IMG/VR virus record: IMGVR_UViG_2558860288_000006
Length of the DNA: 47,388 nt
DNA from: a virus
Taxonomy: Duplodnaviria; Heunggongvirae; Uroviricota; Caudoviricetes
Direction: 5' to 3' (one strand)
The notes beneath the pieces are model-generated. The model saw nothing but the letters and a program-made list of their open reading frames with translations. It did no database searches and was not told where the DNA came from. Made by a program: the position numbers and the translations under genes. Below, one piece after another: positions 32,067 to 45,836 of the stretch (positions are counted from its first letter, which is position 1; each line of letters opens with the position of its first letter).

Positions 32067-32339
32067 TTCTCAATCTCTCGATGGCGCAGTGCAGCAGATG
32101 ACAGTTGTTCAGGCTGACGTATAAAGTATAAATAAACTGATTCCAGTGTAAAGCCCCCACATTGATGGAATAAAAACCAAACAACAGATTGCTGGGATAA
32201 AAACAACGCTTATTATTAAAAGCGGTTAAACAAATTAAATTTTAATGTTATGCAAATCTGCCAAATCACCATAATATCTCATTTGAAAACCGCTGAAATA
32301 ACAACCCTATCAGGATTAATCATATTAAGGTGAGTAAAT

Positions 32340-32426
32340 ATGGAAAACAACAAATCTGCACATTACGTTCCTTTTTTATCTGTAATACTTTTTGTTTTAT
32401 GCTGTGCGTGGGCATTATTTTTATAA
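32340..32426 (+). CDS. Small hydrophobic peptide (28 aa), candidate membrane peptide/toxin
   Basis: Not in the ORF track (too short): AAGGTGAG SD, 5-nt spacer, ATG at 32340; MENNKSAHYVPFLSVILFVLCCAWALFL, polar N-terminus then one hydrophobic helix; convergent with hok. Confidence 0.3.
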   Translation: MENNKSAHYVPFLSVILFVLCCAWALFL

Positions 32427-32534
32427 AAATATTCACAAATAAAATATACCCGCCAAAGCTGGTTAAGTGCGGGTGCGTTGAGGATGCCTGACTCATCAGA
32501 GGTGGCGGGAGATTTCTCTCCCGCCTGGTCACTC

Positions 32535-32690
32535 TTACTCTCTAGATTCGTAGTCTACGAAGACAGCGACCTCCGTCTGGCCGGTTCGGATTCGTACCTC
32601 GCAGAGGTCTTTCCTCGTTACCAGTGCCGTCACTATGACGGTTAAACAGATGACGATCAGGGCGATTAACATCGCCTTTTGCTGCTTCAT
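32535..32690 (-). CDS. hok: Hok/Gef-family type I toxin (HokD/RelF-like)
   Basis: 51 aa from ATG at 32690: MKQQKAMLIALIVICLTVIVTALVTRKDLCEVRIRTGQTEVAVF..., near-identical to my recollection of E. coli HokD; single TM helix plus periplasmic Cys. Confidence 0.8.
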   Translation of the reverse strand: MKQQKAMLIALIVICLTVIVTALVTRKDLCEVRIRTGQTEVAVFVDYESRE

Positions 32691-32895
32691 AGCCTGCTTC
32701 TCCTTGCCTTGCGGCACGTAAGAGGCTAACCTACATTTGTGAGACATAGATTGGGCCTCAGATTAATGTTAAGCGTCTTGCAGGACGCGTAATGTTAACT
32801 GGGGCTTTTCTCTATCTGCCGCTGGTGTTCATGCCCGAGGCAAATAGCCTCAAGCACCCGCAGTAATTTTACTTAACTCCAGCTACCTCGCCAAT
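32691..32895 (-). promoter_or_regulatory. hok leader / mok-sok-type control region (approximate)
   Basis: Hok loci carry a long structured 5' leader with an overlapping upstream reading frame and an antisense RNA gene; here an in-frame upstream extension reaches 32747; exact sok position not determined. Confidence 0.3.
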
Positions 32896-32952
32896 ATGAA
32901 ATCAATCAGAAAGGCGATCCATAAGAACAATAGACAGATAAAGGATAGTCAG

Positions 32953-34314
32953 ATGCAAACAGCAGAGATGTTTCGAAATTTTTTGAACAATTTGAAAATT
33001 TCAGACGAACGTATGCAGGCAATTGCAACACATTATAAAAATGCCACAAGAAGACTTAACATCGAGTTTCGGGGGGTAGCGAATGGATTCAACAATCGAT
33101 TGAAAGTCGGTTCAGCAGGTCGCCGAACAGCGGTTAGCAAAACATCAGACTTGGATATGCTGTATATTATGCCCGCGAGATTGTGGGGAGATTACCAATC
33201 CGGTGTTAATCCACAGCGCCGTTTGCTTCGCGATGTAAAAGAAGCATTAAAACTATCTTTTACCCAGCAAGAGATCAAGGTTGATAGATTAGTTGTACAA
33301 ATCATTTTTGACTCTTTTCATATAGAGGTGCAACCAGTTTTTGAGACTGATGAAGGGCATTTTAAATATCCTGATACTAAGGCCAACGATGGTAATGGAG
33401 GGTGGCGAGTAACTAAACCTCGGATGGAAATTACCGAAATGAGAAATTTCCGTAATAACAAAAGTAGTAATCTTCATAATCTTTGCCGCATGTTAAGAGC
33501 CTGGAAAAATAGAAACACCGTTGATATGGGGGGGCTTCTCATTGACACATTGGCTTGGAGATTTCTGAAACAAACAGATGATTATGATAATACCGGAATG
33601 GTCAGTTATGGGCTTATGTGTCGAGACTTCTTTGACTTTTTGCATCAAGAAGATGTCCATGAACATTATGCAGCGATAGGAAGTGTGCAGAGAGTTAAGG
33701 TCTATAGAAATTTTCAGCGGCAAGCAAAACGAGCCTTTAAATTATGCACAAAAGCGATTGAAGCTTATGAGAATGGCTCGACAAAGAAATGCCACGAACA
33801 CTGGCGAGAAGTTTTTGGGCTAACTTTCCCTAAAGCAGTTGTAGAAATGCGTGACTCTCAGGGGTTAGAGTCAGCTAATTTCATCAATGAGTCCTATACG
33901 GCTCAGACGTGGCGCAATACGGAAGAGTTTACAGATGAAAAGTTTGATGATGTTGATATAAGATACCCCCTCGAAGTTAACTGCATTGTCAAAGAAAACG
34001 GGTATAGGGACCGTGCAATTAGGGCTTACCTGTCGGATATGGCTCGTTATTGGTTACCACCGAATAGAACTTTATCATTTTCGATCAACCAAGCAAGTTT
34101 GGATATCATTCCTGAGCCTTATGATATTTACTGGAAAGTACTGAATAGAGGTTTAGAAGCTGAGCAGCGTGATGAAGTTCGAGGTCAAATAGTTTTAGGT
34201 CAAGTAACTCACACTGAACATACAAAATTTAGAGGTGATCACAAGGTTTGGTGTTACATAGTTAAGAACCATATAGTAATTGCCCAAAACGTTATCGACA
34301 TACCAATCGAGTAA
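32953..34314 (+). CDS. Nucleotidyltransferase, Pol-beta superfamily (CD-NTase/SMODS-like signalling enzyme candidate)
   Basis: Active-site pattern ...KVGSAGRRTAVSKTSDLDMLYIMP... (GS, DxD) and a later acidic strand ...VVQIIFDSFHIE...; ATG at 32953 has an AAGGA SD (alternative ATG at 32896 gives 472 aa); AT-rich, plus strand. Confidence 0.65.
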   Translation: MQTAEMFRNFLNNLKISDERMQAIATHYKNATRRLNIEFRGVANGFNNRLKVGSAGRRTAVSKTSDLDMLYIMPARLWGDYQSGVNPQRRLLRDVKEALKLSFTQQEIKVDRLVVQIIFDSFHIEVQPVFETDEGHFKYPDTKANDGNGGWRVTKPRMEITEMRNFRNNKSSNLHNLCRMLRAWKNRNTVDMGGLLIDTLAWRFLKQTDDYDNTGMVSYGLMCRDFFDFLHQEDVHEHYAAIGSVQRVKVYRNFQRQAKRAFKLCTKAIEAYENGSTKKCHEHWREVFGLTFPKAVVEMRDSQGLESANFINESYTAQTWRNTEEFTDEKFDDVDIRYPLEVNCIVKENGYRDRAIRAYLSDMARYWLPPNRTLSFSINQASLDIIPEPYDIYWKVLNRGLEAEQRDEVRGQIVLGQVTHTEHTKFRGDHKVWCYIVKNHIVIAQNVIDIPIE

Positions 34315-34319
34315 TTATC

Positions 34320-34901
34320 ATGCAAAAAAATGACTTATTATCTCAGATTGCCTCTGCCGGATATAATGTTGGATTTGGCGCTAAGAAAAATTTTGCTACA
34401 TTTGATATTGTTAGCAAACTCCCTGGCTGGATTGGTATTATATCACTAGCAGTCTCTATTTTAGGCCTTTATATGGATGAAATGAGTTCTAAGAATATTG
34501 CAGCCATTTTTATCATTTTAAGCATTGGCAGTTTGTACATCAATTTCTATGATGGTGATAAAAATAAATATGAAGAGGCTGGAAAGAAGCAAACAGCAAT
34601 CTTTAGAAAGATTGAAAGATTGTATTACGATGCAAAATCAGAAAGCGAACCGGATTCTGTTAAATATATTGGGCAACTTGACATTCTGTTAAAAGAATTT
34701 GATGAAACCACTATCACCAAACAAATTTGTGGAAGCAATTGGTATGCTCATTATAAATTCTTTAGTGAAATGGAAAAAAGGTGGCTTGAAGATCAGTTGT
34801 CATTGACTTTCTGGAAGGATAAAGTCCCTAACACTTTGAAATTTCTCATTCTGATAGTTTTCTGCGTCGTTTTGCTTTCGATAATTTATAGGTGTGGTTG
34901 A
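34320..34901 (+). CDS. Small membrane protein with three predicted TM helices (candidate effector)
   Basis: 193 aa; hydrophobic helices WIGIISLAVSILGLYM, IAAIFIILSIGSLYINF and C-terminal FLILIVFCVVLLSIIY; start 5 nt after the NTase stop (operon). Confidence 0.6.
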   Translation: MQKNDLLSQIASAGYNVGFGAKKNFATFDIVSKLPGWIGIISLAVSILGLYMDEMSSKNIAAIFIILSIGSLYINFYDGDKNKYEEAGKKQTAIFRKIERLYYDAKSESEPDSVKYIGQLDILLKEFDETTITKQICGSNWYAHYKFFSEMEKRWLEDQLSLTFWKDKVPNTLKFLILIVFCVVLLSIIYRCG

Positions 34902-34908
34902 TTGTCAT

Positions 34909-34933
34909 GATAGAGGAGTTACACTCCTCTATC
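34909..34933 (+). other. Perfect 11-bp-stem hairpin downstream of the NTase/membrane-protein operon (no U-tract)
   Basis: gatagaggagt-tac-actcctctatc beginning 8 nt after the effector stop codon. Confidence 0.45.
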
Positions 34934-35142
34934 CTCTCTAGGAGGTATTGGTTCTGCTTTGCCCACATCAGGTAATATACTGTACGTTTTCAACTTCCGC
35001 TTTTGGCACAAAGCTGACAACCAGACTAGTTATGGTCCTATGCCATAAAAGTGTCAATTAATATCTGAATTAATACTCTTTAATTTCGTTCACCGTGGCG
35101 ATGCACGAATTTTTTCCTTATAAAATGCCAAAATCCACTGCA

Positions 35143-35511
35143 TTACTTCGCTCTCCAAGCACTCTCTACAAACGATGTTATTACGCCTGTCGTAACGACG
35201 TATTTCTCCATCAGGTAATGACAGATAAGGTCCGGATCAACCACAGATGGTTTCTTCAGCTTTGCCCTTGAGAGTTTTTTGCGGGCCTTTATCCAGTCCT
35301 TACGTGCCTGTTCAGACGGAAATAACCCGTAGCCGGAGTTGTATAAATCGCCACTGGCAACCAGCTCTCTGGCAAGAACACTCATCAGATATCTTGTCGC
35401 ACCTGTCTTAGCTTCCAGTTGTCGTAACGTCTCGCGCCCACTCTGGCGCACGAGCTCAACAACCTTCCCCTTAATTTTTTCCCGCTCTTCTTGTGTAAAT
35501 ACTTTTGCCAT
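35143..35511 (-). CDS. Hypothetical protein (122 aa), early region
   Basis: ATG at 35511 with a GGAGG SD; basic helical protein (…KARKKLSRAKLKK…); downstream of the replication genes. Confidence 0.45.
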   Translation of the reverse strand: MAKVFTQEEREKIKGKVVELVRQSGRETLRQLEAKTGATRYLMSVLARELVASGDLYNSGYGLFPSEQARKDWIKARKKLSRAKLKKPSVVDPDLICHYLMEKYVVTTGVITSFVESAWRAK

Positions 35512-45460: not shown

Positions 45461-45655
45461 ATGCGGTATGAAAAAGTCAAACCATGCCCTTTTTGTGGTT
45501 GTCCATCAGTAACGGTGAAAGCCATTTCAGGATATTACCGCGCGAAGTGTAACGGATGCGAATCCCGAACCGGCTATGGTGGAAGTGAAAAAGAAGCACT
45601 CGAACGATGGAATAAACGAACCACTGGAAATAATAATGGAGGTGTTCATGTATAA
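45461..45655 (+). CDS. ralR: Restriction alleviation protein Lar/RalR-like
   Basis: 64 aa from ATG at 45461; Cys-rich (KPCPFCGCP ... KCNGCESRTGYGGSEKEALERWNKR) as in the Lar family; position before xis/int. Confidence 0.55.
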   Translation: MRYEKVKPCPFCGCPSVTVKAISGYYRAKCNGCESRTGYGGSEKEALERWNKRTTGNNNGGVHV

Positions 45656-45836
45656 AATTACCGCCACTATTGAAAAGGAAGGTGGCACTCCTACTAACTG
45701 GACAAGGTACTCAAAAACAAAATTAACCAAATCAGAATGCGAAAAAATGCTCTCAGGTAAAAAAGAAGCAGGCGTTTCCAGAGAGCAGAAAGTAAAACTG
45801 ATAAATTTTAATTGCGAGCAACTTCAGTCCTCGTGA
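45648..45836 (+). CDS. Small hypothetical protein (YdaC-like position)
   Basis: 62 aa from ATG at 45648 with a GGAGGTG SD; overlaps the lar stop by 8 nt. Confidence 0.4.
   Translation: MYKITATIEKEGGTPTNWTRYSKTKLTKSECEKMLSGKKEAGVSREQKVKLINFNCEQLQSS

Follow-up and report, generated by a model that had tools for sequence, protein, structure and literature searches.

A predicted hokW/sokW-type toxin-antitoxin locus next to a predicted type I CBASS operon in a Rac-like prophage of Escherichia coli

The closest described relative of the type I toxin-antitoxin locus studied here is hokW/mokW/sokW of the Stx2 phage 933W and Sakai prophage 5 (Sp5). For hokW/sokW, it has been shown that Hok is toxic, that Sok made from its own promoter neutralizes it, and that both RNAs are detected; at prophage induction Sok disappears and Hok is made, with an approximately two-fold contribution to phage release (PMC8621323). 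The hok/sok (parB) system of plasmid R1, a plasmid stabilization locus, shares the architecture, with a hok promoter, tac, ucb, and fbi elements, coupling through mok, and a short cis-antisense Sok that has a promoter of its own inside the mok/hok start region (PMC9841398); its toxin identity is ∼44% (the figure is for HokW versus Hok; PMC8621323). Other relatives are hokD (relF) of the Qin prophage and lambdoid copies annotated as HokD. Type I CBASS (systems for antiphage signaling based on cyclic oligonucleotides) of the CD-NTase plus SLATT kind follow a two-gene plan, in which a SMODS + AGS_C cyclase precedes a SLATT_6 two-transmembrane (2TM) protein. Here we describe a stretch of 47,388 nucleotides (nt) from a virus of the Caudoviricetes (IMG/VR record IMGVR_UViG_2558860288_000006; hereafter the window), in which a hok locus on the minus strand stands back to back with a nucleotidyltransferase (NTase) operon on the plus strand that follows the same two-gene plan.

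We estimate a probability of roughly three in four that the window holds a complete hokW/sokW-type locus and a separate type I CBASS in a variable slot, and that their adjacency arises from the position of the slot and not from an evolved regulatory link. The features on which this reading draws are collected in Table 1.

The hok/mok/sok locus and its relatives

The hok open reading frame (ORF) translates as MKQQKAMLIALIVICLTVIVTALVTRKDLCEVRIRTGQTEVAVFVDYESRE and matches Pfam PF01848 (HOK_GEF) with an E value of 4.3e-23 and 81 bits (cutoff, 22), over profile positions 1 to 42 of 42. An earlier note on this DNA had called it a 51-amino-acid (aa) Hok/Gef toxin nearly identical to HokD; the family assignment was borne out, and the likeness to HokD-type proteins is close (47/51 residues), but HokW of 933W/Sp5 is nearer (49/51, 96%), and we therefore call the toxin HokW-like and not HokD. 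It differs from the toxic HokW solely at the last two residues (RE here, EK in HokW), whereas its C terminus reads VDYESRE against TAYEPEE in the HokD type. DNA identity to hokW/mokW/sokW is ∼94% over the whole locus, and the two also have in common the in-frame mok, the Sok −35 and −10 hexamers, the Sok hairpin and U-tract, and the location in a lambdoid prophage. The flanks differ from those of 933W, where homology ends at 32879 and the locus is not beside a CBASS cassette. For hokD and the HokD-annotated lambdoid copies, which occupy the same place between the replication module and nin-like genes, DNA identity is 90 to 93%; K-12-type hokD copies match only positions 32448 to 32704 of the window and thus are without the leader that holds mok and sok.

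The mok start codon lies 57 nt upstream of the hok ATG, and the homologous mokW of 933W is annotated with the same stop codon as hokW. Plasmid R1 has mok and hok in different frames, whereas here the two share one. Translation of hok would proceed through the overlapping mok, as predicted for the hok/sok class. The leader (32859 to 32685) matches Rfam RF01794 ("sok"), a model built on the hok/sok family, at 112.5 bits (gathering score, 59; E = 6.6e-25) over model positions 1 to 157 of 157, and both this match and the Pfam match are far beyond chance. Since the strand matched by RF01794 is the hok-sense one and the match stops at the hok AUG, what the model detects is the hok/mok leader with the Sok target and not the antisense RNA. 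Pipelines relying on RF01794 would therefore place "sok" on the wrong strand and give it the wrong length.

The hok promoter was the top-scoring sigma-70-like site of the region (12.0 with an approximate position weight matrix), and its position is kept in the alignment of homologous loci. The predicted hok mRNA, from 32859 to about 32455, runs past the interval 32535 to 32895 given in the earlier note. At full length it folds with −154.8 kcal/mol (z = −6.06; 0 of 100 shuffles as good), and the minimum-energy structure contains a tac/fbi fold-back (32859-32848 with 32484-32472), the hallmark of the inactive full-length hok mRNA (PMC9841398, which also defines tac, ucb, and fbi). Among the aligned loci (alignment A1), fbi is conserved, and the changes it shows are compatible. 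The Rfam consensus structure has tac paired with ucb (AAGCCCC, ∼32809-32803). We looked for this "open" tac/ucb structure by folding the mRNA with its 3′ end removed and did not recover it: the 5′ end refolded into a local hairpin, which leaves the Rfam consensus structure as the source of the tac/ucb stem.

In related loci, fbi is followed by a terminator, CCCGC-UUCG-GCGGG and a U-run. At 32440 to 32470 (minus strand) of the window, this element is degraded to CCAGC-UUUG-GCGGG, followed by UAUAUUUU. The 3′ end of the hok mRNA is therefore uncertain, and read-through toward DUF1367 is possible.

We placed Sok by alignment with the experimentally detected sokW of 933W (misc_RNA at 2778-2848 of our 933W locus, L002), which puts it on the plus strand, the strand of the NTase operon, as the earlier note had expected. 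On the plus strand, the Sok promoter scored 8.3 and an overlapping TTGCGG/TACATT pair scored 8.6. The −10 hexamer TAACCT is the one replaced in the promoter-less sokW mutant (Takada et al., PMC8621323), as deduced from primers YO-421/422, and conservation of the two promoter blocks is ∼98% in a set of 85 distinct hok loci taken from IMG/VR. The predicted RNA folds into a partly unpaired 5′ tail (7 free nt and a weak 5-bp helix) and a long hairpin (−32.2 kcal/mol; z = −6.25). This hairpin, with 23 bp closed by GC and a U-tract directly after it, forms the predicted terminator; it is ∼85 to 93% conserved over the 85 loci and invariant among six closely aligned ones.

The 5′ tail of Sok corresponds to the first mok codons (32740 to 32755), where the hok mRNA varies most. 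Over the 85 loci, the block 32749-32740 shows 72% conservation, compared with 85 to 100% elsewhere in the mRNA, and Sok differs from sokW at 6 of its first 17 nt. This variability may mean that hok/sok copies within one genome diverge in antisense specificity.

Every component of a hok/mok/sok system could be recognized (toxin, mok, leader, tac/fbi, and Sok promoter and terminator), which points to a complete type I toxin-antitoxin locus of the hokW/sokW type, with Sok and the hok mRNA ends as predicted. Following the steps described in the plasmid R1 and hokW literature, the hok promoter would give rise to a stable mRNA of ∼400 nt, held closed and untranslated by pairing of tac (5′) with fbi (3′). 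Slow 3′ trimming would open this mRNA, allowing mok to be translated and hok through mok, while the short, unstable Sok, transcribed from the opposite strand with its own promoter and terminator, would pair with the mok start region and block translation. Once Sok transcription stopped, Hok would be made and would damage the inner membrane, an event that in hokW comes upon prophage induction. Toxicity of this Hok allele and its neutralization by Sok are to be expected by analogy with the 94%-identical hokW/sokW.

The CBASS cassette and its insertion slot

The NTase gene and the SLATT_6 gene are separated by 5 nt. The catalytic motif GS(x11)DLD can be read straight from the 453-aa NTase protein (G53-S54 and D66-L-D68). 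Among the neighboring genes (hok on one side; DUF977, DUF1627, and IstB-like replication genes on the other), there were no Cap2/Cap3 genes of type II systems and no HORMA/TRIP13 genes of type III systems. By its gene content the operon is classed as a type I CBASS, with cyclic-nucleotide synthesis and phage defense as predicted functions.

The true start of the NTase gene is the ATG at 32953, which is the start given by the Prokaryotic Genome Annotation Pipeline (PGAP) in E. coli strain R1 and the point from which the PADLOC cyclase profile aligns at residue 1; an AAGGA Shine-Dalgarno sequence lies 8 nt before it. In the longer ORF of 472 codons, which starts at 32896, the Pfam SMODS domain begins at residue 20. 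We rejected this start because the first 19 codons are antisense to a truncated small ORF of the hok flank and are thus spurious. The start codons of hok and the NTase gene are consequently separated by 262 nt (32691 to 32952). The earlier note was right that hok and the operon are adjacent and divergent (we count 93 nt from the hok start site to the NTase ATG), but the leader at 32691 to 32895 is not, as it held, the sole DNA before the operon.

The small ORF is intact in cassette-less lambdoid loci (∼4040-4128 in L003 and ∼1985-2075 in L004 to L006; L numbers designate compared loci), where it lies unannotated directly upstream of the hok promoter and on the hok strand. It encodes 29 hydrophobic amino acids (MLVLKCALAIAAVMAIYCLAVVLMDRLSD) from a GTG start preceded by an AGGAGG Shine-Dalgarno sequence. 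The product had no Pfam match and could be a second small membrane peptide. In the window, the ORF is truncated by the cassette.

The limits of the cassette were drawn from DNA homology. By blastn, the cassette is 92 to 95% identical to loci in Rosenbergiella, Kalamiella, and Pectobacterium and 81% identical to a locus in Cedecea; homology with the first three genera extends from 32933/32935 to 35009/35017, and that with Cedecea (L008) ends earlier, at 34841. The left limit is sharp, ∼20 nt before the NTase ATG, and other hok loci are homologous to the window up to 32932-32941. On the right, lambdoid homology on the DUF977 side starts at 34986-34997. Upstream of the cassette, the other genera have ∼290 nt of conserved DNA with a 20-nt palindrome and a promoter-like ATGAAA-16-TAAAAT; this region is absent from the window, where the cassette kept merely ∼20 nt of native 5′ sequence. 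At the DNA level, the cassette is present in 2 of 5,426 complete E. coli genomes. The cassette would have entered an accessory slot of the prophage, truncating the small ORF and leaving its native promoter region behind.

The slot lies between the DUF977/ren-like gene and the hok promoter and held different cargo in each of the phages examined (L003 to L006): DUF5677; an FRG-domain gene that is a PDC-S15 candidate defense gene; a GNAT gene with a helix-turn-helix regulator; and QueH with a methyltransferase fragment. The PDC-S15 match was obtained with the FRG-domain gene of phage Tritos (L004); L026 has an ORF of the same size. For a broader survey, we took 88 IMG/VR contigs with a common hok 5′ end and clustered the 2.5 kb that precede the hok start site in each. 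This yielded 44 sequence clusters, 10 of which have a first gene divergent from hok, and PADLOC matches among such divergent genes included PD-Lambda-2_C, BstA-like, PDC-S39, and PDC-S42. A variable cargo and defense slot abutting the hok promoter thus accounts for the adjacency of hok and CBASS. In the literature, we found nothing specific on hok together with CBASS, nor a description of a hotspot at this site.

Table 1. Features of the hok/mok/sok locus and the CBASS cassette in the window
Feature	Position	Strand	Basis
hok toxin ORF, HokW-type, 51 aa	32535..32690	-	ORF list; Pfam; HokW identity; PGAP "Hok/Gef family protein" in strain R1
mok reading frame, 70 aa, in frame with hok	32535..32747	-	ORF list; 933W mokW annotation
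hok promoter: −35 TTGGCG (32894-32889), 17-nt spacer, −10 TAAAAT (32871-32866)	32866..32894	-	Consensus scan
hok mRNA, predicted; 5′ end well defined, 3′ end approximate	32455..32859	-	Rfam model position 1 at 32859; −10 ends 7 nt upstream
tac element, 5′ GGGUGCUUGAGG	32848..32859	-	Pairs with 3′ fbi in minimum-energy fold
fbi element, CCUCAACGCACCC, fold-back partner of tac	32472..32484	-	Minimum-energy fold
Sok promoter: −35 TTGCCT (32704-32709), 17-nt spacer, −10 TAACCT (32727-32732)	32704..32732	+	Position weight matrix; sokW homology
Sok antisense RNA, ∼71 nt, predicted	32739..32809	+	Alignment with annotated, experimentally detected 71-nt sokW
Sok intrinsic terminator: hairpin 32755-32805, then UUUUCUCU	32755..32813	+	Fold; invariant in six aligned loci
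Remnant (last 10 codons and stop) of 29-aa hydrophobic ORF	32902..32935	-	Alignment A1
Horizontally acquired CBASS cassette (∼2.08 kb)	32933..35017	+	DNA homology limits versus Pectobacterium, Kalamiella, Rosenbergiella, Cedecea
CD-NTase (SMODS + AGS_C), 453 aa	32953..34314	+	Pfam SMODS 6.5e-35, AGS_C 3.2e-37; PADLOC Cyclase PDLC00796 6e-157, residues 1-453
SLATT_6 two-transmembrane effector, 193 aa	34320..34901	+	Pfam SLATT_6 1.1e-61; PADLOC 2TM effector PDLC00695 8e-78
Short palindromic boundary motif, right junction, GTTTTCAACTTCCGCTTTTGGCACAAAGCTGA	34986..35017		Overlap of cassette and lambdoid homology

Transcription between Sok and the NTase gene

The earlier note had proposed that Sok and the NTase operon may share one promoter region. 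The sequence does not support a shared promoter: the Sok promoter lies ∼220 nt upstream of the NTase ATG, Sok has its own terminator (−32 kcal/mol), and both this terminator and the opposite-strand hok promoter intervene between the Sok promoter and the ATG. A consensus scan detected no plus-strand sigma-70 site from 32200 to 34525. With the weight matrix, the best plus-strand sites past the Sok terminator scored ∼4.6 (TTTACT-18-CAATAT and TTAACT-18-TGAAAT), a score reached by chance about once per 87 nt. We rejected these as an own sigma-70 promoter of the operon; at the equivalent position, two cassette-less loci have TTAACT-18-TAAAAT, which scored 10.4 compared with 4.6 here. Because the equivalent site is stronger in some cassette-less loci, we see no evidence that a promoter was created or improved in the cassette lineage. 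A Sok terminator weakened in this lineage was also considered and rejected, as alignment A1 shows no variation in its hairpin or U-tract. Loci without the cassette have an identical terminator, which thus shows no sign of having been adapted to read-through.

Several points weigh against regarding the two modules as independent. Because the native 5′ region was lost, any CBASS transcript starts in or crosses hok-flanking DNA, and it is unavoidable that CBASS expression, if any, depends partly on DNA of the hok side; low-level Sok read-through, or interference with the hok promoter, is possible. Independence holds for the origin and mechanism of the modules, but for their transcription it is a presumption. 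The Sok RNA, the ends of the hok mRNA, and the start of CBASS transcription were all deduced from sequence and homology, and the promoter scores come from an approximate sigma-70 matrix, which ignores other sigma factors. Moreover, the arrangement is clonal, with four independent assemblies 100% identical over 2.8 kb, and therefore offers no evolutionary replication for or against coupling. We nevertheless favor two separate modules, in which CBASS would most likely be expressed at a low level, from weak sites within the 93 nt that separate the ATG from the hok start site, or by slight read-through.

Coupling could take the form of a promoterless CBASS transcribed mainly by read-through from the constitutive Sok promoter, so that it would rise and fall with Sok and the extended Sok would also cover the hok promoter and tac. 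The Sok promoter pair does constitute the best plus-strand sites in the ∼290 nt before the ATG (another one, which lies in the hok coding region and thus farther from the ATG, is nearly as high, at 7.9), Sok ends on the same strand 143 nt from the ATG, and what lies in between offers chance-level sites and just ∼20 nt of native cassette sequence. Such transcription would, however, have to pass an apparently strong intrinsic terminator that is unchanged from cassette-less loci, and then another long hairpin, complementary to the 5′ stem-loop of hok, and we consider it unlikely. A version that we hold to be very unlikely ties CBASS to plus-strand transcription of the hok leader, whether by Sok read-through or from a cryptic promoter that overlaps that of hok, such that CBASS would be off at induction as Hok is released. 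Sok transcription is indeed shut off at prophage induction in the case of sokW (PMC8621323). If this version were true, the induced phage would be self-immune to its own abortive-infection system while CBASS would stay on in the lysogen.

The separate-module reading also has to be set against the idea that one or the other module is dead. The cassette could be silent or decaying cargo, captured without a promoter by illegitimate recombination and unselected in the prophage, as the loss of the native promoter region and the weakness of the promoter-like sites upstream would suggest. Two disrupted genes fit this idea: in an otherwise identical prophage (CP057621.1, L024), an 8-bp insertion (GAAAGATT) at window position 34606 frameshifts the SLATT effector, and the neighboring DUF977 gene is annotated as frameshifted in E. 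coli strain R1. Yet the window has both CBASS ORFs intact, four other assemblies have them in identical form, neither the Shine-Dalgarno sequence nor the start codon has been lost, and a larger collection lists the exact NTase protein in 386 blocks, with the same context in all places shown. Low constitutive expression generally suffices for CBASS, and we judge silent cargo to be quite improbable. Least probable of all, the hok locus could be a relic that has lost its activity, as several of the chromosomal copies of hok in E. coli K-12 have. Disruption is reportedly common among chromosomal hok loci, and the truncated K-12-type hokD copies (query positions 49-305 only) fit this pattern, as does the degraded terminator hairpin after fbi. 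That terminator, however, is likewise missing from the functional hokW of 933W/Sp5, all defining elements of the locus are intact, and the toxin is the toxic HokW except for its last two residues.

Junction sequences, prophage context, and significance

The 20-nt palindrome ahead of the native cassette is a perfect inverted repeat (ACATCATGATACCAGTTCGT / ACGAACTGGTATCATGATGT), located at 2742-2786 in L007 with equivalents in L009 and L010, ∼220 to 260 nt upstream of the native NTase gene; it could be an operator or a terminator. In Pectobacterium jejuense (L010, 920-2534), a second, different pair of SMODS and SLATT_4 genes directly precedes the NTase-SLATT_6 cassette, an arrangement that appears from gene content to be a tandem of two type I CBASS-like operons. 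A search for terminal inverted repeats like those of transposons or miniature inverted-repeat transposable elements gave one weak 19-nt pair in L009 and nothing consistent in L007, L008, and L010.

The right end of the cassette carries a ∼30-nt palindromic motif, TCAAyNTCyGCTTT-TGGCAC-AAAGCrGAC, that we also found in L003, L004, L006, L007, L009, L010, L025, L027, and L033. It stands at the boundary between cargo and DUF977 in lambdoid phages with unrelated cargo and recurs in IMG/VR contigs amid DNA that is unrelated on both sides, for instance beside the 3′ end of umuC in L033. The motif was rejected as an RNA element or terminator, having no Rfam hit at E ≤ 1, a fold no better than shuffles (z = −0.22), and no U-run on either strand; inspection showed that, because of its −12 element, it does not fit a sigma-54 site (TGGCAC-N5-TTGC) either. 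Candidate roles are a boundary or recombination sequence and a site for protein binding.

The DNA of the window comes from a lambdoid, Rac-like E. coli prophage and is identical or nearly identical in sequence to many E. coli assemblies, such as that of strain R1. In the core from 32400 to 35200 (2.8 kb), blastn found four public assemblies to be 100% identical and strain R1 to be 4 single-nucleotide polymorphisms away. Early-right transcription of the prophage runs from high to low window coordinates, in the order racR, ydaS, ydaT, ydaU, ydaV, DUF1627, and DUF977, then NTase and SLATT, then hok, and then DUF1367, YbcO, DUF1133/Q, and the lysis genes; the CBASS operon is antisense to this early-right operon. 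Hok-like DNA is found in 4,724 of the 5,426 complete E. coli genomes, with a median of 2 and a maximum of 9 hok/sok copies per genome. The window also has a full-length match to the small RNA RalA (45654-45832, minus strand; Rfam RF02694, 215 bits), so that ralR/ralA is a further type I toxin-antitoxin system of this prophage.

Much of this is already known in kind: we have here an allele of hokW/sokW and a recognizable type I CBASS, and defense genes are expected in variable slots of prophages. What the analysis contributes is a corrected start codon for the NTase gene and the documentation of the DNA just upstream of the lambdoid hok promoter as a site of very diverse cargo, often with known or candidate defense genes. 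Further, a CBASS copy without its native regulatory region provides a simple test case for how captured defense cassettes are expressed and for whether this has an effect on a neighboring type I toxin-antitoxin system.

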